A DNA stretch of 63,846 bases, counting the filler. It is 11 parts of 11 records of this genome, joined end to end, with 100 filler letters (N's around TTAATTAATTAA, not from the genome) between each part and the next. Parts side by side here need not be neighbours in the genome. Positions count along the whole stretch, not along the records: positions 5,564 to 14,542 come from SRR15195285_2717; 10 more parts are not named here. One strand, written 5' to 3'. Below are positions 1-35,794 of this stretch, piece after piece. The notes beneath the pieces were generated by a model. It saw only the letters and a program-made list of their open reading frames with translations. It was not told the DNA's origin and did no database searches. The position numbers and the translations under genes are program-made. Positions within the stretch are counted from its first letter, which is position 1; the number at the start of each line of letters is the position of its first letter.

Positions 1-22
1 CCCCCCCCCCCCCCCCCCCCCC
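1..22. repeat. poly-C homopolymer at window/contig start
   Basis: Run of 22 C; may be a sequencing or assembly artefact. Confidence 0.9.
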
Positions 23-194
23 GCTCGCCCTTCCTTGGGAGACGTCTGAAGCAGGCTGTATTCTGCGTGTCAACCCCGCGGACGGCTCACTGCGGGCAGT
101 CCATCGACGTACGCTATCGCTGCGTGGAGCCCTTGTGTGGCTGGTGCGTTGGGGGCTTCGCTGTCGATTGGCTGCACGCTGGGTCTCCGTCAGG

Positions 195-2032
195 ATGTGG
201 CCCGCGCTGGGTGAGGCGCTGCTGCTCCTGGCCGCTGCGGCTATGGTAGCTGCAGGCCCCTCGCCCTGCACCGATGACGAGTTCGTGCTGCATGAGTTTC
301 CGGGAGGGGCGGTGGATGTCCCTGCTCCACAGGCCACAGCGTTGCTGGACTTGCTGAGGAGTAGTGGCGACCCAAAGCTGCACGACCTCGGCCGAGGGCG
401 GCTGTGCTGCGGAGTACCGCACCCCGACCAAGGTACAACACGTGAGGACGATACCCACCGGTGGAAGGGCGAGGTCTTTGTGCTCGGGAAAAACGGCGGG
501 TCTCTGCGCCGGCCTTTCCACCACCGCGGGGACCATCGCAACCCGACGCATAACTTCATGTTCTGCAAGGCAGCGACCGGCGATGTGGAAGAAGTGCAGC
601 TTGAGTACATGCGACTAGGAGAGCGGACTCACGGGGTCATGCCGGCCAGTATCGGAAACCTGGTCGAGGCCCACGTGCTGGAGCTGCGGCAGAACGCGTT
701 CACCAGCGTGGCGATGAGCCTACACAAACTGGAGAAGCTCGAACTGCTGGATCTTTCCAACAACGACCTCAGCGAGCCAGCGGAAGCAGTGTTTAGGATC
801 TTCGAGCAAATTGGGTCTGTAGGGAATGGCGGCCAGTCGACTCTTGAGAAACTATACTTGCACAAAAACAGGCTGCACGGCACACTCCCTGCCTTCGGCG
901 AGCGGATGACCGGCCTCGAGGAGCTGCGGCTAGAAAACAACAAGGTGAGTCTTGCCTTCTAGACACAACGTGAATAATGACTCAGGCTCTAACGAAGGCA
1001 GCTGTGCTCGCATGTGCGCTCAGCTGAGTGGACCTATCCCATCCAGCATGGATCGCTTGACAAGGCTGGAGATGCTCCATATGCAACACAACAAGCTAGA
1101 CGGAAATCTGCCCGCTGAGCTTGCCTTCATGGACACTATGAAACACCTAAAGCTCGGCGCAAACGACTTGCGCGGCGAGATGTTCGAACTCGACAGAATG
1201 ACTAACCTTCGGTGCGTTCGTTCGTTTGACGGCTTCACATTTGTGCCCTTCTCTGCACAATCATGGTCAAGTACTGACAGCAGTGGCCAATGGGCTGGCT
1301 CGTGCATAGGACTTTCTCACTGGAACACAACCGCTTGACAGGAACCATCCCTGGTAAGGAACGCAAGCATGCGCACAACGCACCATCGTTTCACCGTGTG
1401 TGCTGATAGCTACAATCATCCATCGTCCAGTACTACAGTGGCTTGTTCTCAACTGTAGACATTGATGTTCGAGTCGTCTACATTGCATGGCGCAGTCAGC
1501 ATCGAGAACCTACCGCAGCTGCACGACCTCGACCTCTCACACAACCGCCTGTCTGGGAATCTTCGTATCCCAACCTCTCCAGAGCTGCACTCGATCGATC
1601 TCAGCACGAACCGCCTGGAAGGCCCAGTACCAGAACGCTCGTTGAGCTATGCCTCCCATCTCGCCCGGGTGAACCTCTCACAAAATCGGTTGACAGGCCC
1701 AATCGACTCTTTTGTGTTCGGCCTTGCAGATCCCGCACACTGTGCAGACCTCAACCTTGCTTCGAACCAATTCGACGGCGAGATTCCATCACGGCTGTCG
1801 ATGTTCCCACGTGCGAAGATTACGTTGTGAGCATTCCGAATGTCCGAGGTGCTACCGTCATCCGTCACAATTATCACTGATCTAACAACACTGAACGTGG
1901 TATCCAATGGATGGGTGCAGGAGCAACAACTACTTCCGAGGGCGATTACCAGTCGAGCTACAGAAAATGGTGGAAGAAAAGCGGCTTGTGGTGAAGAATA
2001 CTCGAGTCAAGATGCCATCTGGTGAGCTGTGA
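195..2032 (+). CDS. Secreted plant-type LRR protein (5 exons) ending SGEL; carries a possible in-frame TAG
   Basis: Signal peptide MWPALGEALLLLAAAAMVAAG and repeated LxxLxLxxNxLxGxxP motifs. GT-AG introns at ~945-1023, 1212-1309, 1354-1438 and 1827-1920. The last exon reads SNNYFRGRLPVELQK...MPSGEL*. Confidence 0.8.
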
Positions 2033-5463: not shown

Positions 5464-5563
5464 NNNNNNNNNNNNNNNNNNNNNNNNNNNNNNNNNNNNN
5501 NNNNNNNTTAATTAATTAANNNNNNNNNNNNNNNNNNNNNNNNNNNNNNNNNNNNNNNNNNNN
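5464..5563. other. Artificial contig linker
   Basis: N44-TTAATTAATTAA-N44, stops in all six frames. Confidence 0.98.
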
Positions 5564-6643: not shown

Positions 6644-9600
6644 ATGGAGGGCTTCCGGCAGTCGCTGCGCCAGAGCCTCTACCTCGACACCCCGCAGGGC
6701 AGCTGCTGTCGAAAGGTACGTACGCCCAGGTGGCCTCGCAGGACGGCAGATACGGCAGCGCTGTCCAGGTTGATGATGGACCACCAGCCGTCCGTCCGTC
6801 TGTCTGTCTGTCCTATATTGCTCCTATGTACAGCTGTATCTGTCTCCGAAGCTTGACAGTGGTGTGGTGGGTTGTCGTTTGCAGGTGTCGTGCGGGTTGC
6901 TGGTGCTGCTCGGGACCCGGTGGTTCGTGGTCGTGTGGGAGCTGCGCGCGATCGTGCCTCTGCCGCTGTTCTATGGGATCGGCGTGCTACCGACGCTTAC
7001 GCTGGGTGGGGCGGTGCTGCCGATGATCTGCGATGCCGGTGGCGGGCGATGTGTGTGTGGCGCGCGCGGACGCCAGGTCTTCTCCGTTCTCTGCGCGACG
7101 CTGGACGCCGCCTTGTCGCTTGGCCTGGCGGGCGGCCTGGTCTATGTGGCAGACAAGTTGGCAACCGAGCCGGATCAGGGACTCAATATCTACTGGTCTG
7201 GCACGCTGCATTTGTTCATTTACGTGCTGATGGCCAGCATCCTGGGTGCGTTCTGCGCGTCTCATACCCATCTTGCCCGAGCCGCAGCGTCGTAAGACTC
7301 ACTCCCATGCGCGTTCGGGCAGCGCTTCTGCTGTACACAACCCTCGCGGTGCAAGGGCACTGTTGCGCGCAGCACGGTACCTCCACGTGCACCACACACT
7401 CCATCGAGCTCGATGCTGTGGCTACTGCGGACGGAAGCAACGCGCTGCAGGAAGGTCTGATCGATGACGACGACGATGGATTTGAGCGAATGGATTCAGC
7501 TCAGACCGCTCGCCGTCCCAGGGGTGGCAAGCGCAGCCGATGCGACCCGATGGCCGGCATCAGCCGGCTGAATGACGAGGAGAAACTGAGCGCCACATTG
7601 CTGCTGATCTACTCAACAGTTGCGGCGTTTCAGCTCATTGTGTTTTTTGTAGCACTCTGGCAGTGGCAGATGAACGACGGCCTCCGGCATGCTGTCGGTG
7701 GCATTGACAGCCCACCATGTGGCGACCCACTTGTCGGCAACTACGCGCCATGTGCGCTGCCTTTCCCTTCGGACTACCTGCTGGAGGTAGACCTGCCCTC
7801 AGCAACAGGGTATCGGGTAGCGATGACCTCAGAGTCGCTCCCTCTTTCCCGATGGGACGGAAAGCTGTCACCAGTGGCCTGGAATGCCCAAGACGGTTTT
7901 TCGACAGTATCGCCTGTCCTCTTTGCCTTCGCTGCCAAGGACAAGGCGCCGATCGATGTAGATACTCTGATTCCGCACACACACATCGAGATCTCGATGC
8001 AGCCGACCAATCCTAAGATGACGACGATCCTGCTCGATGCGGACAGCGGGGAGCTAGTACCACACTGGGTTGACGTTGATCAGTACCACCTCGACTACGG
8101 AGAAGACATTGTGGCAGATGGTCGCCCTCCCTTGCTCATCCTGCAACCTGCGAAGCCGTTGAGGCACAACACTACGTATATCGTTGGGGTGCGTGGCCTG
8201 AAAGCGAAGGGAGTGGCTGTGCCTGTTGAGTCATCCTTCGCAGCAGTTCGTGACTGTGTACCTCAACACGGTTGCGACCCCAGTGCACAGTTGGCACAGG
8301 CCAAGCCTGCGATTGAATGGCCGAGGAAGAGAACGTACGCGCACAATTAGCCCCCATCTACGTAGAGTCTCTGTGCTCATGATCGTGCACGGTGTGTTCA
8401 CTGCAGAGATGCGTACAATTCGCTGGTGTTTCCAAAACTCGAGGCACACGGCTTCCACCGCTCCAATCTGCAGCTGGCTTGGTGGTACAAGACTGTCTCC
8501 TCAGAATCTTCCCTTGGCGTTGCAAAGCACATTCGTGAAGAGTCGCTGGCATCAGTGCCTTTGCATGGCCAGCCGCTGTCGTCAGGGCAGAGCCCGATCG
8601 AGCCAGTGGTTGACAAGGTAACGGATTACACTTGTGGCACGGCCGGCGATGATGGAAGCTGGGGCGGGAAACACGGTGTGCATATTGGGCGCACCGTCTG
8701 GGGCCACTTCATGGCGCCAACGTACCTGCGCCGTGCTGGCCCTGGCTACCACACTTTTTACAACTTCCCGTCAACACAAGGAGGCCACCGAATGGACAGT
8801 CGGCTCGATCCTGCCGGTCATAGCGTTGGAGGTCCATGGTGGAGCCATGAGGTGACCGATCTCGGTGCGGGTGCTGGTCAGCGCAGCTCTGGCGATGGAG
8901 CACGCGCGATGCCAACACGCCTCGAGGGCAAAGAGCGCGTCGGCTGGGTGGCGCGTATCCCATGCTCCGTGCTGTCTAGGGCAGGCCAATCCGCTTTTGT
9001 GCTGCAGTACGGTCACGGTCTGTTTGGGAGCCGCGATGAGATTAACGCAGGTTATTTGAGCAATCTGGCGAATCAGAATGGTTGGATTCTCGTAGCCTTG
9101 GACTGGGCAGGAATGGCACAGTTTGACGTCCCGCAGGCGATACGTATCATGACCTCACGATTTGACGAGTTCGCGTCTATGCCTCAGCGAACAGTACAAG
9201 GCTGGGCGTACGATGCAATGTTCATGCGCCTATTAGGGACTGAGGACATGGCAAAATTGCCGGCGTTCCAGTCACCAGCGACCAAGATCTCGCTGCTTTC
9301 GCCTCGTCGTTACGCAGAGGGTGCAAGAACAGCGAGACAGGCTCTTGATGCAGGCAACATTCATCTAACAGAGGGTCCACTTACTGCGGGGTACTATGGC
9401 AACTCGCAAGGGGCAGTCGTTGGCTGCGGTTACTGCGCTTACCAGCGTGACATTCGACGATGCACGTGTGGGGTGCCTGGTTGTCCCTTTGCGTTAATAC
9501 TCTCACGCTCCAAAGACTTCGCGCCCTACTACACGGCCCTTAAGCTGCAGTTTACACACGCCCAGGACATCCGTCTGGCGATCACCTTAATGCAGGTGCT

Positions 9601-10066
9601 TTGGGATCAGGGCGAGTCTGGTGGGTGGCTGGGAGAGATGGCACCTAAACAAGTGTTGCTACAGGCAGGGATTGGCGATGCCCAGGTGAACAACCTAGGG
9701 GCTGAGCTGATGGCGCGAGCCTACAGCGCATCGACGGTGAAGCCACAGACACGACCGGTTTACGGCGTACCCGAGCGAGACGGTTCTTTCGATGGTTCGG
9801 CACTCGTGGAGTGGCTCTACGATGACGTTCCTGATTCACCACAGGGTGATGTCCCTCGGTCCGACGAGAAAGACGTGCACGAGTGCCCTCGCAAAGAGCC
9901 ATCTGCGCAACGTCAGATGAAGCTCTTTCTTTTGGGGCAAAATGTAACGCAGCAGTGTTACGATGCGCATGGTGCCCAAGTCAAATGTGAGAGTAAGACC
10001 TGCCCGTCTGATTTTGGCCCGTGGCCTGACTCACCCACACCAGGTGACGGAGTCGGCGCAGGATGA
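6644..10066 (+). CDS. Membrane-anchored alpha/beta-hydrolase (bacterial lipase-like family), 4 exons
   Basis: N-terminal hydrophobic TM segments, then CALPFPSD, WNAQDGFS, YGHGLFG, DWAGM, nucleophile elbow GNSQG, GDAQV and VHECPR. Introns at ~6717-6885, 7246-7322 and 8335-8406 restore one frame. Confidence 0.8.
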
Positions 10067-10782: not shown

Positions 10783-13700
10783 TCAACACGAGGACGCTGG
10801 GACCACCGGCAAGCGGTTGACATGGTAGTGCCAGTTCACTGGCGCTGTGCCAGAACAGCGTTCACCCTTTTCGCAGACAACTTTGCACGAGCTTCCCCCA
10901 GAGGCGAAGAACTCACCGACTCTCTGCACCGCTGTCAACCCTTCTGTCTGCAACCACACACGCAGAAAGCAACTGAGGCATGCCCTTGTCTCTCATGCAG
11001 CTTGTTTCAAGGGAGCCGTAGGCGAGCATGATTATCCCAGCACGCACCAGGTGTCCACGAGCTCCACACCCCTCTGACTCTTCCTCGAAGTCGTGCCACA
11101 TCCCTTCAAAGACCTCCACCTGCACTGCCGCACCAGCGGCCTGTGCCGCTTGTGCGAACATCAGGTTATCCCCGAGCAGAATGTCACGCGAGCCGATGAC
11201 GAGCATCATCGGGGGCAGTTCGGCAAGTAGATACGGCGGTGACGACATCGGATTGACTATCGGCATATTGTATGGCATGTCGGGCCCAGTATAATGCCGC
11301 GCATCACAAAATGCTGACATCCGGGCCCACCCTGGCGGCTCAACCTCAACAGGATCACCAGTACCATAGCAGCTGCCATCGCACCAGCGTAGAGACTCAT
11401 ATGTCGGGGAGGAAGCGGTGAAGTCTAACCAGGCAGAGAATGTCGCTGCGCCCGAGATGCTGACGTTCAACGATTTGTTGGCCAACCGGTGATGCGCAAT
11501 CCAGAGCAGTGTCTCTGCAACGATTGTGCCACCTGATGAGTCACCATAAAGAAAGATATCCGAAGCTCCTTTCGCCGTCAGCCACTGACATGCTTGCACT
11601 ATGTCGCGGATGCCGTCTGGGTACTGCGCAGCAGACCGATAGTCGACAGCAAGAACACCCATGCCGGCGGCTTTGGCCACGTGGGACGAAAGAAAGCCGT
11701 AGCCGCCATTGATGTTATTGTAATAGCGAAAGTCTCCACCGTGTACGTACACCACCCAAGGCTTGTCCAAGATGATCTGCCGCTCCCACTCGTCTGTAAG
11801 GGCCCCGCCAGAACACACCATTTTGTTGCATCCAGTGTCAGAGCGTGGGTGGCAGGAGCACCCACACCGACCAACTCGTCGCCAGGTTGATCCATCATGC
11901 CAGGTCACCTTGAAGAACGTCGGGTTGAACGTCCCGTTCGATATCACTGTGTTGTCGTACTCGATTGAAACGAAGCCATCCTGTCGCACCACCAAAGTTG
12001 CGGCATGCCACGCCCCTCCCTTTTTGCCCACATTCGTTGGGTCACAATCACCATTGGCTCCACCTGTGATGCAAAGAAGCTCGAAGCGTCCAGGAGGCCC
12101 TTGCGCAGTAATCATGAAGCGATCTTCTGCTGCGTTTCCAGATGTCCATTCGCCGCTGATGTCACCTTTCTGGCGTTTGGTGTGATTGTAAGGAAAGAAA
12201 AACCAAGCATCCCCTCGGTGCGACTGCTTGCCGCCACCCGATCCGTCGTGCCAAGCACGAGGAAACTCTCCAGGCCTCTTGCCTTGGGCATTTGCTGGCA
12301 ATCTTCCAGTCATTAACAGTCACACGAGCAGCAGTGAAAAAGGCCAACCGTGCACAAAATATATCCACGTAGATGCATGGTGTGGCTCTCACAGCTAGAG
12401 AATGTATGGGTAGACTTGGTGTATACACTGGAGCTGACTTACGAGGCGCAGTCAACTGCTTGGCTCATATCTTCATCCATCCACACCTGGTCATGACCAC
12501 TGGTCCACAACTGTTCGCAATAGGACGCCGAATCATCTCTGATCGGGTATCCACTGATTGCTGATTCGTCCGGGTAAGCTGTTGCTGTAGTCGAGGCCAG
12601 ATTGCACGTAGTTGCTCCGTTCGTCTTGTCGTAGGTGATCGTCCAGGCCCTGCAGTTCGTATTACGTGTAGAAGAGCTCGAGCTGTTTAAGCACGCTGCA
12701 CAGCATAGATCGAACTCGCGTTCGTTCTTGCGATACCACACCGAGCGATCCGTCCAGTGAATCATCGAGAAGTTGCTGTTGAAGCTACCACTAGCTCTTT
12801 GGCCGTTGTCGTAAATCGCCATCATATGGCCAGATGAAACGTTTAGAGTGCCGTTGGCGGTGTGCCAGCGGCCACCCTCCGTGCCGAATGCATTGCATGT
12901 GCTCCATCCAGGATTGTCGGATGCGCCACCCGGTCCACCATCGATACACGTGAGCGTCCAGTTGAACATAGTGCTCTGATGCGACTCAGAAAGCCTGAGA
13001 ACGTACTTGTCATCCTGAACAGAGCCGTCAGTGCCGAAGCACGACCAGAGACCACTCACGTTCGCGTTATTGTGCGCACACGGCAGTGACAAGTTTTCAT
13101 TCTGCCAGGTCGGCAGGACGAATGAGTGTATTGGGTCGTGTTCGGTCTTGTATTGAGGTGTTATGAAGCTATAATGATGAAAGTACCGACAGGTGGTGTC
13201 AGGGTTGCCCAGACCGCCGCCAGTGAGGTTGCCTACACGAGGTGGCGGAGTTTCCTTCCATGCACAGCTGAGATGGCCGTTCTGGTTGCGGACCATCGAC
13301 CCTGGCTGGCATGCATCCAGTGAAATTGAAGTGCGCTGCCCAGTGATTGGAACCCGCGACCAGCTGATAACCCCCTGGCCGGTCGACCAGTTGGCAACAG
13401 TGTAATTGGCATCAAAGTTGCCGTGTATAACCTGCTGATTGTCGAGATATAGCGTCGCCTGTCCGGTTGGCACGTGAGCCGTCCCTCGCCCGGAGCGCCA
13501 CACCGTTCCGTTTTTGCCAGGCACATTTGGGTTGCAGCACATGTCGTACCCGCCATCTAGGCACAGTATCGTAAACCCCGTCACATTGGGGCTCAACGCC
13601 TGTACTCTCAGCTGAATACGCCCGCCACCTGGTATCCCATTGTTGAGCGCATTCGTCCACAGTCCTGTGACGTTCCCGCGTGGCGCAAGAGGTCGGGCGG

Positions 13701-14298
13701 ACGGATCCACCACATCGGTGGGGTAGCAGAGGCATGTCAGCGAGTTCGCCAGTCGGACGCAATCGGTACACGTCTCAGCGTAAGAACCGTTCGGCAGGCC
13801 TGTCCATACCGGCCGCTCGGCCTTCGGGCATTCTCGAGTCGCTGCAGGCGGAGTGGGCGCTGCCGCATTTCTTGCCAAGTCACCCCGTGGCCAGGAGAGC
13901 TGTGGTGGGTCGGCAGCTGCGGGTTTCGCCTGGCGCTCTCGTGGTGGCATTGTGACGCCTGTAGCGCCCGTAGCCTCTGCGAGCTGCGCCTCAAGCTCCC
14001 GCGTGCGCGCTTGCTCTGCAAGCAGCGCCACGCGCAGCCGATCGACCTCTGCTTGCAGCGCGCTGGCCGACCCCCCGCCAGCATCAGCCGCCGCCGGCCC
14101 GGGCGCAGGCGACAGCCCCGCCTGCGATGCACACACAGCAAGAAGTGCACGGTTAGTGCAAGCGAGTGCGAACCGTCCTAGCACGGCTTGCTCCTCACCT
14201 GCACGGTGAGCGCCGCGGCATACAGCGCCACCGCCGCCCACATCCAGTGTCGACCCACGCGGCGGCAGGACGGCATCCGTTAGGCGCCAGTCCGGCAC
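10783..14298 (-). CDS. Multidomain HSL-family (Abhydrolase_3) esterase with CVNH-like, PAN/apple-like and three copies of an unnamed module; start uncertain
   Basis: VYVHGG, AVDYR, GDSSGG and GMWHDF motifs. ORFs 12439-14298 and 10913-12313 are joined by an intron (~12304-12442). A terminal exon TEGLTAVQRVGEFF...SSC* follows an intron at ~10948-11047. Confidence 0.8.
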
Positions 14299-14542: not shown

Positions 14543-14642
14543 NNNNNNNNNNNNNNNNNNNNNNNNNNNNNNNNNNNNNNNNNNNNTTAATTAATTAANN
14601 NNNNNNNNNNNNNNNNNNNNNNNNNNNNNNNNNNNNNNNNNN
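14543..14642. other. Artificial contig linker
   Basis: N44-TTAATTAATTAA-N44. Confidence 0.98.
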
Positions 14643-14643
14643 G

Positions 14644-17106
14644 GAGCCGGAGCCGGAGCCGGAACCAGAGCCGGCAACGCGCGGACGTTCCGTTTCAGAG
14701 TCGTCGCCTCGAGCGATGCGACGTGCGGGTGCAATGGGCAAGTCCATGCGAGAGCGCAGGCGCTCTTCCATCCAGATGCAGCAGAGTTTGGCTAACCTGG
14801 AGAGCATGTTCACTGACCTGAAGGGCGACGTCGTCAGCACTAGCCAGGAGTCGAAGACGAACATCCACCTTGTTGAGCAGGCTCGACGGATGTCGATGGC
14901 GAAAGCTCAGCAGACTGCCCTTTTAGGGCAGGACCAGGAGCTTGATGCAATGCTCCAGGAGTTGGACGAGGCCGAGGATGAAGACGTGGCTACGCCGTTG
15001 AAACTCGAAGTTGCTGTGGCTGAAGAGGATGCAGAGCCAGAGCCGATGAGCTTCTTCACTGGAGCATTGGTCGCCACAGCAGCCACGAAGTGGGCGCACC
15101 TGTCACCGTCCAGACTGGACATCTCAGCGTCGCCACGCGAGGAGGAGGACGACGAACGGGAGTCACCAAGCCCAAGCCCTCCGATGTCTCCAGAAGCTGG
15201 AGATGGCCTCAGCGCCTGGGAGCAGGAGGCTGAGCTCGCGGCTGAGCTGGCAGCCGAGGAGGATGAACTACGTCGACTGGAGCACGCAGAGGAAGTGGCA
15301 CGGGAGCAGGCAGCACGGCAAGCCAAAAAGAAAAAGCAGGAGCAGAAGAGGCGCAAGCAAGCGCACGCAGCTGCTGCGCGCGCCGAGGCAGAGAAAGCTG
15401 CTGCTCGCAACGCAGAGGCGGCCGCCGCGCGCGAGATCGAAGAAGCCGCCGAGGCCAAGCGGAAGGACGCAGAGCGAAGACGAAATCTGCAGAAAGATAA
15501 ACAGAGGCGCCAACGGCGCGAAAAGGAACAGCGTGCAGCGGCTGCCGCGGCTGCTGCGCTCCGGGAGCAGGAAGAGCAGAACGCTCTGGCAGAACTCGAG
15601 GTTGCTGAAGCCAAGCGCAGAGAAGAGCAGAAGCGCAGAGAGAGTGCTCGTAAGGCGGAGCTGAAACAACGACAACGCGCCAAAGCACAGCGCGAAGCTG
15701 CTAAGGTGGCCGCTGCGGAGGCTGATGCAAAACGTCGGGAAGAACAGGAGAGGTATGCCGCCGTCGCGGCTGCGACAGATGGACCAGGGCGAACAGGCAG
15801 TGGTGGCCTCACGCGAGCCGCGGAGGCGGCCCTCGCAGCAAGGCTGTCGGCGCAGAAGCCAGTGCCGTCAGAAGACACTTCGCCAAAATCCTGCAGCGGC
15901 TCTCCTTCACAGCGGCGAGCACAACGTGAACACGCCGCTAGACTGGCAACCAGGAGCTGCCCCGAAGTAGTCGAGGAGGCGGAGCCGCCACGGGGTGCCG
16001 CGACTGCTGGGTTTTGGGATGCCTTTGTTGCCCGCAACGACAAGCTGATTGAGGACAGGGACGAGAAACACCGCGAGCGTATGCTGTCGGTCTGCTTGGC
16101 ACGCCAATCGCACGTCAGCGAGGAGGAGATTGCAGAATTCAAAAAGCTGATCGAGCTCAACCCAAAAGAGTTTGCTGAGTTTCTGGCGACCAACGCGAAA
16201 TTCGAACGCGAGTGGAAGAAGTCTTTGGGCACTGGCAATCATCACGACACTGCTGACACAGCATCATCGCATGGTTGGAATTCGGACGGGATTTCACCCG
16301 TAGCAGCAAGGAATGTTTATCGTCACGCACCTGTGGGCTTGAGCCACCATGGCACACGGACTTTGAGCCAGGTCGGCATGCGCGTCTTCAAGGTGGTTGC
16401 TCCGAAGATCGCTGTGCGCTCGCATTACACACTAGACTCCCCCAAGGTCGGTTCCCTTGCCCAGGGCGATACTATCATTGTAACTGATCGTAGACGAATT
16501 CGAGTGACCGTAGATGGAGCTGTCTCGAGTGACGACGACGAGGCGCTGAGCGTCACGGGCACATCACTGATTGAGCGCTTGCACTGCCTGAGTGGATGGG
16601 TGTCGGCGACTTCGACTGAAACAGGCGTCGCGCTTGTAGAGGAGGATCGGGATGCAACAGCTCGAACACAACTCGTCTCTGGGGTACAGCAGCTGGAGAG
16701 CCGAATGCGTCCAATCAAGAAACGCAAGGCATCCATCAACCACTTTGTGGCGCGGCAGGAGAGGGCGGCCGAAATTGCCGCAGCCCAAATCGCAGCGAAG
16801 CGAGCCGCAGCCGAGTCCGAGGAGCTAGCCGAAGTGAAAGCACCAAATGGTCGGGTATACAGGAAGGCAGCTGATGTGAGCGAGTCGGTGCTAAAGCCTA
16901 CGAAGTCATTCGAAGCCATGATGCAGGAGAGGGAAGCACGACAGCAACAGCAGGCGATCGAGGCTGCTCGTGAACAGGCGCTACTTAGCCCAAGTTCGAG
17001 CCCGAGTAAAAGCCCAGGACGCTCAGCACCTGTCAATTCTCCAATGCCTTCTACTATTGCTGTCGCTACTTCGGCGCGCCACGAACTGGAAGATTCAGCT
17101 GCATAG
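14644..17106 (+). CDS. Coiled-coil protein with EPEP repeat and an SH3b-like domain (probably 5'-partial)
   Basis: Open frame from the contig edge (EPEPEPEPE), long E/A/R/K helices, and FKVV...VR...LDSPKVGSL..GD.I.V...RL....GWVS SH3-like segment. Confidence 0.7.
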   Translation, partial: EPEPEPEPEPATRGRSVSESSPRAMRRAGAMGKSMRERRRSSIQMQQSLANLESMFTDLKGDVVSTSQESKTNIHLVEQARRMSMAKAQQTALLGQDQELDAMLQELDEAEDEDVATPLKLEVAVAEEDAEPEPMSFFTGALVATAATKWAHLSPSRLDISASPREEEDDERESPSPSPPMSPEAGDGLSAWEQEAELAAELAAEEDELRRLEHAEEVAREQAARQAKKKKQEQKRRKQAHAAAARAEAEKAAARNAEAAAAREIEEAAEAKRKDAERRRNLQKDKQRRQRREKEQRAAAAAAAALREQEEQNALAELEVAEAKRREEQKRRESARKAELKQRQRAKAQREAAKVAAAEADAKRREEQERYAAVAAATDGPGRTGSGGLTRAAEAALAARLSAQKPVPSEDTSPKSCSGSPSQRRAQREHAARLATRSCPEVVEEAEPPRGAATAGFWDAFVARNDKLIEDRDEKHRERMLSVCLARQSHVSEEEIAEFKKLIELNPKEFAEFLATNAKFEREWKKSLGTGNHHDTADTASSHGWNSDGISPVAARNVYRHAPVGLSHHGTRTLSQVGMRVFKVVAPKIAVRSHYTLDSPKVGSLAQGDTIIVTDRRRIRVTVDGAVSSDDDEALSVTGTSLIERLHCLSGWVSATSTETGVALVEEDRDATARTQLVSGVQQLESRMRPIKKRKASINHFVARQERAAEIAAAQIAAKRAAAESEELAEVKAPNGRVYRKAADVSESVLKPTKSFEAMMQEREARQQQQAIEAAREQALLSPSSSPSKSPGRSAPVNSPMPSTIAVATSARHELEDSAA

Positions 17107-26926: not shown

Positions 26927-27026
26927 NNNNNNNNNNNNNNNNNNNNNNNNNNNNNNNNNNNNNNNNNNNNTTAATTAATTAANNNNNNNNNNNNNNNNNN
27001 NNNNNNNNNNNNNNNNNNNNNNNNNN
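26927..27026. other. Artificial contig linker
   Basis: N44-TTAATTAATTAA-N44. Confidence 0.98.
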
Positions 27027-31984: not shown

Positions 31985-32084
31985 NNNNNNNNNNNNNNNN
32001 NNNNNNNNNNNNNNNNNNNNNNNNNNNNTTAATTAATTAANNNNNNNNNNNNNNNNNNNNNNNNNNNNNNNNNNNNNNNNNNNN
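31985..32084. other. Artificial contig linker
   Basis: N44-TTAATTAATTAA-N44. Confidence 0.98.
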
Positions 32085-35694: not shown

Positions 35695-35794
35695 NNNNNN
35701 NNNNNNNNNNNNNNNNNNNNNNNNNNNNNNNNNNNNNNTTAATTAATTAANNNNNNNNNNNNNNNNNNNNNNNNNNNNNNNNNNNNNNNNNNNN
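35695..35794. other. Artificial contig linker
   Basis: N44-TTAATTAATTAA-N44. Confidence 0.98.

Follow-up and report, generated by a model that had tools for sequence, protein, structure and literature searches.

The stretch of DNA analysed here as a whole (the window; about 64 kb) carries on its minus strand, at 10783-14298, one three-exon gene, and in the protein that it encodes the same unnamed barrel is very probably nested in surface loops of three host domains (a cyanovirin-N-like repeat, a PAN/apple domain and a family IV esterase) as an optional and anciently inherited guest of the scaffold. The spliced frame comprises 1091 amino acids (aa), is counted from a GTG at 14298 and contains zero internal stops. 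Two long open reading frames (ORFs) are read on this strand, 12439-14298 (P0001, 619 aa; ORF A) and 10913-12313 (P0002, 466 aa; ORF B); they were joined into one gene because residues 512-1091 of the spliced product align with residues 1-572 of the contiguous orthologue P0095 at 76% identity and over both junctions. ORF A ends with ...VDCAS and is followed by GTAAGT; an in-frame acceptor (..GGAAG|A) 140 nucleotides (nt) downstream gives ...VDCAS|LPANAQGKRPGEFPRAW. P0095 comes from an environmental assembly as one uninterrupted frame and has ...VDCASLPALEQGKAPGAFPRHW at the point of intron 1 (junction comparison stretch: ...VDCASLPALEQGK). The third exon, in a different frame, was found by tblastn of P0095 residues 521-572 (68% identity); it lies behind a GTGCGT..CAG intron, and ORF B past 11048 therefore merely runs on into this intron.

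Composition of the gene (minus strand throughout): exon 1 (12443..14298) – signal-peptide-like stretch, coiled-coil-like stretch, cyanovirin-N-like (CVNH-like) repeat with module 1, PAN domain with module 2; intron 1 (12303..12442) – 140 nt, GTAAGT...AG, junction ...VDCAS|LPANAQGK; exon 2 (11048..12302) – esterase N-terminal strands, module 3, Cys-rich hairpin, esterase core; intron 2 (10948..11047) – 100 nt, GTGCGT...CAG; exon 3 (10783..10947) – Cys-rich C-terminal tail (TEGLTAVQRVGEFF...NWHYHVN...) and stop codon. This spliced reading mends a split gene call and adds the third exon; in the protein collection the gene stands as two calls, P0092 (581 aa), which corresponds to ORF A, and P0087 (400 aa; NCBI, EukProt), which starts at a Met inside module 3. 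The coiled-coil-like helix (SALQAEVDRLRVALLAEQARTRELEAQLAEATG; 13966..14064) was read by eye and is conserved in orthologues after their hydrophobic N-terminus; orthologues begin with a signal-like hydrophobic segment, and the copy in the window shows such a segment in part only.

Three copies of the module had been proposed from the letters alone in an earlier, sequence-only reading of this DNA; the hidden Markov model (HMM) envelopes coincide with them to the base: copy 1, P0001 residues 209-316 (13351-13674, 108 aa); copy 2, P0001 residues 413-524 (12727-13062, 112 aa); copy 3, P0002 residues 51-147 (11873-12163, 97 aa). The flank sequences quoted there around all three copies are present as written. 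Pairwise BLASTP of the copies gave E 5e-12 (1 vs 2), 4e-09 (1 vs 3) and 6e-13 (2 vs 3) at identities of 27-32%, and on these values the copies are homologous and not alike by chance. In the three-copy alignment (A1) copies 2 and 3 are each 29% identical to copy 1, and 19 columns are invariant, with G.W at the start and W.R at the end; the conserved columns (mostly Gly, Trp, a Cys pair that brackets a long loop, C..GG...C, a D-N pair and the terminal W.R) are probably structural. When the A1 profile was run over all six frames of the window, no further copy was detected (next best match, E 0.83).

No credible Pfam match was obtained for the three copies, copy 1 giving a sub-threshold match to Amidase_5 (E 0.025, 14.9 bits against a cut-off of 21) that was read as chance; none was obtained over the module regions of 17 homologues, and profile A1 had no sequence match in the PDB. 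Searched against 1.84 billion representatives, A1 returned only 52 matches, 41 of which were read by eye, the remaining 11 being short fragments classed by script. Five of the 52 (P0024, P0035, P0036, P0046, P0053) were set aside as false positives (bacterial repeat proteins, several weak stretches in each), and most of the remainder, orthologues or fragments, have their parts in the same order. In viral contigs 41 pattern stretches matched A1 and none was confirmed as a relative, so that a hint of the ESM Atlas towards giant viruses found no support there; the Atlas was otherwise uninformative (copy 2, best: unnamed clusters 0.94, staphostatin 0.84; P0032 residues 40-145, best: 0.88). By these searches the module is a previously unnamed domain family, absent from Pfam and, by sequence, from the PDB.

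AlphaFold2 models were prepared for P0001 residues 157-619 (model 1; 33-row alignment, mean predicted local distance difference test score (pLDDT) 76.7) and for P0002 (mean pLDDT 77.7, predicted template modelling score 0.77) and compared with 48,161 chains by VIA-align, in which Z < 8 may, by the caution line of the tool, reflect mere common arrangement. Each of the three modules shows eight consecutive strands by DSSP (copy 1 with pLDDT of about 75-96 per 10-residue block), and no helix was assigned within or directly after any of them. Best matches of module 1 (model residues 47-163): designed barrel 6czj, Z 9.9 (101/109 residues); 8ah9, 8.9; 6d0t, 8.8; Atu4866 (2jmb), 8.1 (77/79 residues); below the caution line, the streptavidin/avidin family, Z 6.3-7.6 (6qsy 7.6, 2c1q 7.5, 4bj8 7.3, 3szh 7.1, 8amh 6.9, 2y32 6.3), and lipocalin-like proteins, Z 6.3-6.7 (4gzv, 4inn, 4qrl); protease inhibitors are also among the matches. 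The small eight-stranded barrel of the sequence-only reading was thus recovered, and its avidin likeness holds at the level of the fold only, the best match being a designed barrel.

The lipocalin/calycin signature pairs G-x-W in strand one with a basic residue close to the final strand; G4, W6, W105 and R107 are invariant over the three copies and fit this signature. A C-terminal helix packed on the barrel is the mark of lipocalins proper and is not matched by the modules. The module is accordingly predicted by the models to be a closed eight-stranded up-and-down barrel of the calycin kind, with G.W in strand 1 and W.R in strand 8. Where eight strands form a closed meander, strand 1 is next to strand 8 and both chain ends exit on one side, for which reason such a module can sit in a loop: the pairing of the first and last strands would bring the termini side by side, and the barrel would fit a host loop without disturbing the host fold.

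Copy 1 is nested in the beta2-beta3 turn of a single cyanovirin-N-like repeat (GSYAETCTDC...LTCLC // RTSISLDAC...NGHLSC). The N-terminal part (NGSYAETCTDCVRLANSLTCLC and linker; strands beta1 and beta2) lies at 13675..13791 and the C-terminal part (RTSISLDAC...VRNQNGHLSCAW; strand beta3 and hairpin) at 13258..13350. A profile of three insert-free N-terminal domains (A3) was searched against the PDB at E up to 10, and 12/12 matches were cyanovirin-N (CV-N) or CVNH proteins. Whole-chain E was lowest for a four-repeat construct (2e-06) and highest for 5k79 (0.94); single CV-N chains lay at 3e-4 to 0.03 and the homologue 2jzj at 0.036, and single-repeat scores against CV-N were 7-13 bits. In this alignment the insertion point follows the ...C.C strand and stands opposite the CV-N turn between the second and third strands. 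The flanks of model 1 aligned to CVNH structures across the insert: 1n02, Z 6.4, root-mean-square deviation (rmsd) 2.7, 53 residues, 24% identity, model range 14..190; 5c8o, Z 6.2, 55 residues, 22% identity, model range 14..190; 2l2f, Z 5.9, rmsd 2.0, 48 residues, model range 14..191. The earlier claim that copy 1 splits a cyanovirin-like repeat agrees with both results. A complex prediction with two insert-free copies of the CVNH-like domain gave a pairing score of 0.02 against a mark of 0.32, which says nothing either way.

Copy 2 is nested between the first strands and the helix of a PAN/apple domain, just ahead of CCAAC...CRAWT...CNL, where the sequence-only reading had placed it. The N-terminal part (TTCRYFHHYSFITPQY...) was located at 13063..13224 and the C-terminal part (helix CCAACLN, then the CRAWT and TTCNL strands) at 12523..12726. 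PAN_1 (PF00024) matched orthologue P0004 with 30.6 bits (cut-off 21.4; profile positions 14-59 of 76), starting directly after module 2; PAN_4 (PF14295) matched P0039 with 25.1 bits, under its cut-off of 27; the module-free P0096 and P0097 gave no Pfam PAN match. The PAN flanks aligned to the plasminogen PAN domain (4a5t_S residues 1-82; Z 6.2, rmsd 2.6, 76 residues, model range 203..436) and to the N domain of HGF (3hms; Z 6.0, 81 residues, model range 209..434). The order of elements in model 1 is two strands, an eight-strand block and three strands, followed by PAN-like strands, a second eight-strand block, a helix and three strands. A Foldseek search of the whole 463-residue model against the PDB was discarded, as its long alignments, at TM 0.05-0.15 to sliding clamps and laminin LG pairs, made no sense.

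Copy 3 is nested between the esterase N-terminal strands, which lie at 12164..12302 and include GDAWFFFP (12191-12214), and the HGG strand (PWVVYVHGG). It is followed by a Cys-rich hairpin and helix (GRCGCSCHPRSDTGCNKMVCSG...; 11762..11872), assigned to the scaffold and not to the module because module-free homologues retain the hairpin, and by the family IV/Abhydrolase_3 core (11048..11761; HGGD 11732-11743, GDSSGG 11528-11545, SRDILL 11174-11191, MWHDF 11087-11101). Abhydrolase_3 (PF07859) matched P0002 residues 187-409 with 97.7 bits (cut-off 25) and is the sole Pfam match in the scaffold; a PDB sequence search gave family IV esterases at E about 1e-14, with the alignment beginning at residue 185. 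The motifs HGGD 191-194, GDSSGG 257-262, SRD 375-377 and WH 406-407 of P0002 align to those of 7b1x and 5gms; GDSSGG, SRD and WH stand opposite the nucleophile Ser, the acid and the His of PDB family IV esterases, HGGD is the oxyanion motif, and the Ser/Asp/His set is, as far as these alignments go, intact. By VIA-align the model gave 439 chains at Z >= 8 (9izt_B: Z 27.8, rmsd 2.2, 246 residues, model range 1..441). Structural alignments begin at about residue 48 of the esterase chains, and the usual N-terminal helical cap is without a match. Because the range is 1..441 and the sequence alignment starts at 185, the strands before module 3 (2-5; 36-39 = AWFF) probably stand for the first strands of the enzyme, which is where the insertion had been put in the sequence-only reading. 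Two Cys-rich pieces of the scaffold are kept without modules, namely a C.C.C...C...C hairpin before the esterase core and the C-terminal tail with C..VC...C and a conserved NWHYH.

Module-free homologues were obtained by further searches with P0001 residues 157-619 and with P0002. The spacing of the flank motifs (alignment A2 and motif spacing) is bimodal, 34-84 aa for empty and 147-194 aa for filled sites: site 1 – 34-47 aa empty, 155-194 aa filled; site 2 – 41-54 aa empty, 164-185 aa filled; site 3 – 42-84 aa empty, 147-168 aa filled. Occupancy patterns were taken from sequences that cover all three sites: 000 (no modules) – P0096, P0097, P0105, P0110 and the cluster mate P0120; 100 (site 1 only) – P0106; 020 (site 2 only) – P0111 and its mates P0121 and P0123; 123 – the window (P0001 with P0002) and P0004. 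P0072/P0027 carry modules at sites 2 and 3, the spacing at site 1 being filled with a weak module match there; in P0051 site 2 is filled and site 1 is without a module. The inserts are optional, since homologues with the same scaffold carry none, site 1 alone or site 2 alone, and each of them is dispensable for the scaffold.

Outside the scaffold the module was found as one copy in P0032 (behind a signal-like N-terminus and before a Pro-rich tail), as two in tandem between Pro-rich linkers in P0048 and as two copies in the 195-aa protein P0050; a search for relatives of this tandem, short-type P0050 returned P0050 itself only. These free and tandem copies make the module an autonomous domain. 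Named relatives come from Picozoa single-cell assemblies and the transcriptome of the choanoflagellate Stephanoeca diplocostata (P0106, pattern 100); a relative from a dinoflagellate transcriptome (P0107) has no modules at sites 2 and 3, and the other relatives are from unnamed marine assemblies. The patchy spread of the scaffold could reflect age, transfer or contamination, the last being possible for any named relative.

A tree was built of 42 non-redundant, near-full-length modules. Site labels change 5 times on it, against 20.7 on shuffling (0/200 shuffles as low). In approximately unbiased (AU) tests one clade per site was not rejected (p 0.32, 0.58, 0.23), whereas one clade per protein was (window, p 9e-59; P0004, 4e-54; P0008, 2e-69; P0027, 1e-4). 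The modules group by site and not by protein, and the insertions are therefore old and inherited: the three sites were filled before these lineages split and have been inherited since, with later losses or gains. On the scaffold tree with one bacterial outgroup the module-free trio lies outside a clade supported at 95/100; on the esterase tree at least 3 changes of the site-3 state are needed, and forcing the bearers of site 3 together costs 13 log-likelihood units (p 0.056). The DNA next to the modules contains no flanking direct or inverted repeats of note, only short matches at chance level and the homologous W.R-coding ends, and in the window no intron lies at a module border. Translated-intron-like Cys/Leu-rich stretches break conserved blocks in P0004 (~620-690), P0012 (~75-100), P0023 (~205-225) and P0085 (C-terminus); by eye, these apparent introns fall within a module or within the esterase core and not on a module border.

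Several results weigh against this account of nested and inherited barrels. Neither the window protein nor any of its flank pieces matched Pfam CVNH (PF08881) at E up to 10, and even the three insert-free homologous domains did not; the host has one CVNH repeat only, some 61 residues long, 48-55 of them aligning with approximately half of the CV-N chains, and the domain is therefore called CVNH-like and not a member of the CVNH family. Pfam PAN likewise gave no match in the window's own protein. The structural matches of both domains are middling (Z ~6, under the caution line of 8) and come from AlphaFold2 models of mean pLDDT 77 built on 33-row alignments; the two readings were accepted because sequence and structure agree, neither being strong alone. 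For the esterase, VIA-align gives the first and last aligned residue only, so the place of the N-terminal strands in the sheet is deduced. The 5' end of the gene is open: no in-frame ATG occurs before residue 117, the frame is open to 14397, and an N gap follows at 14543-14642. With five bacterial outgroups the basal place of the module-free trio is supported at 61/34 only, and the rooting of the scaffold tree is unstable, so that module-free scaffolds may be either ancestral or secondary.

The flanks might be no host domains at all: if modules and flanks together were tandem repeats of a larger Cys-rich unit, the CVNH and PAN domains would be over-read linkers and nothing would have been inserted. 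Cys-rich stretches do precede or follow all copies, and the Pfam negatives for CVNH and PAN just given point the same way; yet the flanks are unlike each other and A1 aligns the module alone, each flank pair aligns over its insert to a known fold, a different one in each of the three cases, homologues exist in which contiguous flanks without a module leave 34-84 aa between the flank motifs, and the insert-free N-terminal domain matches cyanovirin-N only in the PDB. Insert-free flanks thus occur naturally and score as CVNH, the module is not found solely in tandem, and the larger repeat is scarcely credible. The same module-free homologues could themselves be artefacts of mis-assembly, gene-call error or a spliced-out module, with the insert fixed in the family; most of them do come from metagenome or transcriptome assemblies of unknown quality, and intron read-through is obvious in P0004, P0012, P0023 and P0085. 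Against this, at least 6 distinct 90% clusters are module-free or partly filled (P0096, P0097, P0105, P0107, P0110, P0111; in addition P0106 for sites 2 and 3), three sources agree (JGI; ENA and Logan assemblies; EukProt transcriptomes), P0096 and P0097 are 36% (A2) and P0105-P0111 38-41% (A5) identical to the window protein, and in each of these forms a short linker of its own stands where the module would be. Such identities and linkers mark different genes and not splice forms, and a wholesale artefact is extremely improbable.

A module that is still actively copying itself into new loops, by copy-and-paste or exon shuffling, would make the varied occupancy a record of recent, repeated insertions. 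The sequence-only reading had suggested a mobile in-frame module, and one part of this stands: occupancy differs among homologues at all three sites, the state of site 3 has changed repeatedly on the esterase tree, and the module occurs elsewhere alone (P0032) or in tandem (P0048, P0050). The grouping of modules by site, with per-protein clades rejected by AU and per-site clades not, the 27-32% identity of copies within one protein, and the lack of DNA insertion scars, of extra copies or border introns in the window and of confirmed relatives in viral contigs argue instead for old, inherited insertions, and present mobility is judged very improbable. A different objection concerns function, namely that the barrels are avidin-like traps for a small ligand (biotin, another vitamin or a lipid) and the protein a scavenger and not a lectin-guided esterase. 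The avidin and lipocalin-like structural matches and the avidin-like (N/D)(V/I)(T/S)G.W opening strand fit such traps; but none of the three copies matched a Pfam Avidin (PF01382) or lipocalin entry at E up to 10, profile A1 matched no PDB sequence, identity in the structural alignments with avidins is 4-14%, generic designed barrels and the 79-aa Atu4866 score best, the avidin scores lie under the cautioned Z of 8, and the invariant columns (Gly, Trp, Cys and the D-N pair) look structural. A ligand trap is accordingly improbable, and the preferred reading remains that of optional, anciently inherited barrels in three host loops of one scaffold.

The nearest precedent is MoCVNH-LysM, a type III CVNH lectin of Magnaporthe oryzae, in which, according to a review, LysM is nested in the CVNH domain and the parts behave as isolated units (PMC4392113, citing Koharudin et al. 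2011); in both proteins a foreign, independently folding domain stands inside a CVNH domain, and the structure of a MoCVNH-LysM variant (5c8o) is among the matches to the CVNH flanks of the window protein. In MoCVNH-LysM the LysM guest lies between the repeats of a full two-repeat CVNH domain, whereas in the window protein an unnamed barrel occupies the turn that follows the second strand of a single repeat and stands also in two further, unrelated hosts of the chain. The module resembles small meander barrels (6czj, 6d0t, 2jmb, avidins, lipocalin-like proteins) in size (79-125 aa), in its eight antiparallel strands in sequence order and in G.W of the first strand; it differs from them by no detectable sequence relation, by C..GG...C, a long loop of disulfide type that links strands 3 and 4, by conserved sequons and by the missing lipocalin flanking helix, and in every case seen it is part of a secreted protist protein, usually nested.

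The esterase shares with family IV/HSL-type enzymes (9izt, 7b1x, 4xvc, 1jkm) the fold, the Pfam family, HGG, the GDSxG elbow and the aligned acid and His; unlike these it carries the nested barrel and a Cys-rich hairpin in place of the cap, has HGGD and not HGGG, and is fused behind lectin-type domains. Hydrolases with a lipocalin-like barrel are D-aminopeptidase (1ei5), esterase IS11 (7spn) and the cyclases SurE (6ksu) and Ulm16 (8fek), whose barrels match module 1 at Z 6.4-7.2; in them, as in the window protein, a small eight-stranded barrel stands beside a serine hydrolase, but there it is a C-terminal appendage of a beta-lactamase-fold enzyme and here an insert in an alpha/beta-hydrolase. 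A role in gating the active site, common to these attached barrels and the module, may be conjectured by analogy.

Other features of the window: the neighbouring long ORFs at 8426-10066 (+; 546 aa) and 14716-17106 (+; 796 aa, Ala/Glu/Lys/Arg-rich, with a coiled-coil look) had no Pfam match at E up to 0.01. The N runs are paired, exactly 44 N + 12 called bases + 44 N (e.g. 14543-14586 and 14599-14642), at least 5 times in the window (5464-5563, 14543-14642, 26927-27026, 31985-32084, 35695-35794), and look like a regular scaffolding or masking artefact and not like random gaps.

The whole protein contains 41 Cys and 18 N-x-S/T sequons, against 8.2 +/- 2.6 after shuffling (0/1000 as high); in copies 1 and 2 and in most orthologues a sequon is formed by the first residues of the module. 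The N-termini of orthologues show, by eye, a hydrophobic signal-like segment and then a coiled-coil-like stretch. From the sequons, the Cys content and these signal-peptide-like N-termini we infer a secreted or surface glycoprotein. It would be exported and glycosylated, its CVNH-like and PAN front end would anchor it on glycan-bearing particles or surfaces, and the esterase would remove ester groups while the front end holds the particle or surface; the barrels would give more sites or a longer reach to a lectin-guided enzyme whose substrates are particulate or glycan-bound esters. This putative role of the barrels, as accessory units that add binding sites or reach, is a tentative proposal to which a little less than an even chance is given. 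Module 3, at the position of the family IV N-terminal cap, may replace the cap and shape substrate access, which is possible though rather unlikely; that the barrels act mainly as glycosylated spacers or shields seems unlikely.

A wider and speculative proposal, which we consider improbable, is that the barrel family is specialised for life in the loops of other domains, that it entered three sites of the same secreted scaffold independently, and that it was repeatedly gained and lost across distant marine protists (Picozoa, choanoflagellate, dinoflagellate) by in-frame transfer at the DNA level. If true, the barrel would be a 'plug-in' module provided by nature and would show where CVNH, PAN and alpha/beta-hydrolase folds have loops that tolerate an insertion.

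Nested domains as such, like meander barrels and family IV esterases, were known already; the domain family, the use of one guest in three hosts and the surviving occupancy series appear to be new, and no earlier description of a protein with cyanovirin, PAN domain and esterase, or of such a nested barrel, was found in the open-access literature that was searched. It is unusual that the same guest occupies three unrelated host folds of one chain and that natural controls with 0, 1 (at either of two sites) or 3 inserts exist. To engineers the protein offers three insertion-tolerant loops (lectin repeat, apple domain, esterase) and a compact guest whose ends are expected side by side. For evolution it is a clean case of how domain insertions arise and vanish, in a family whose occurrences so far are all in secreted proteins of marine protists that are uncultured or little studied.

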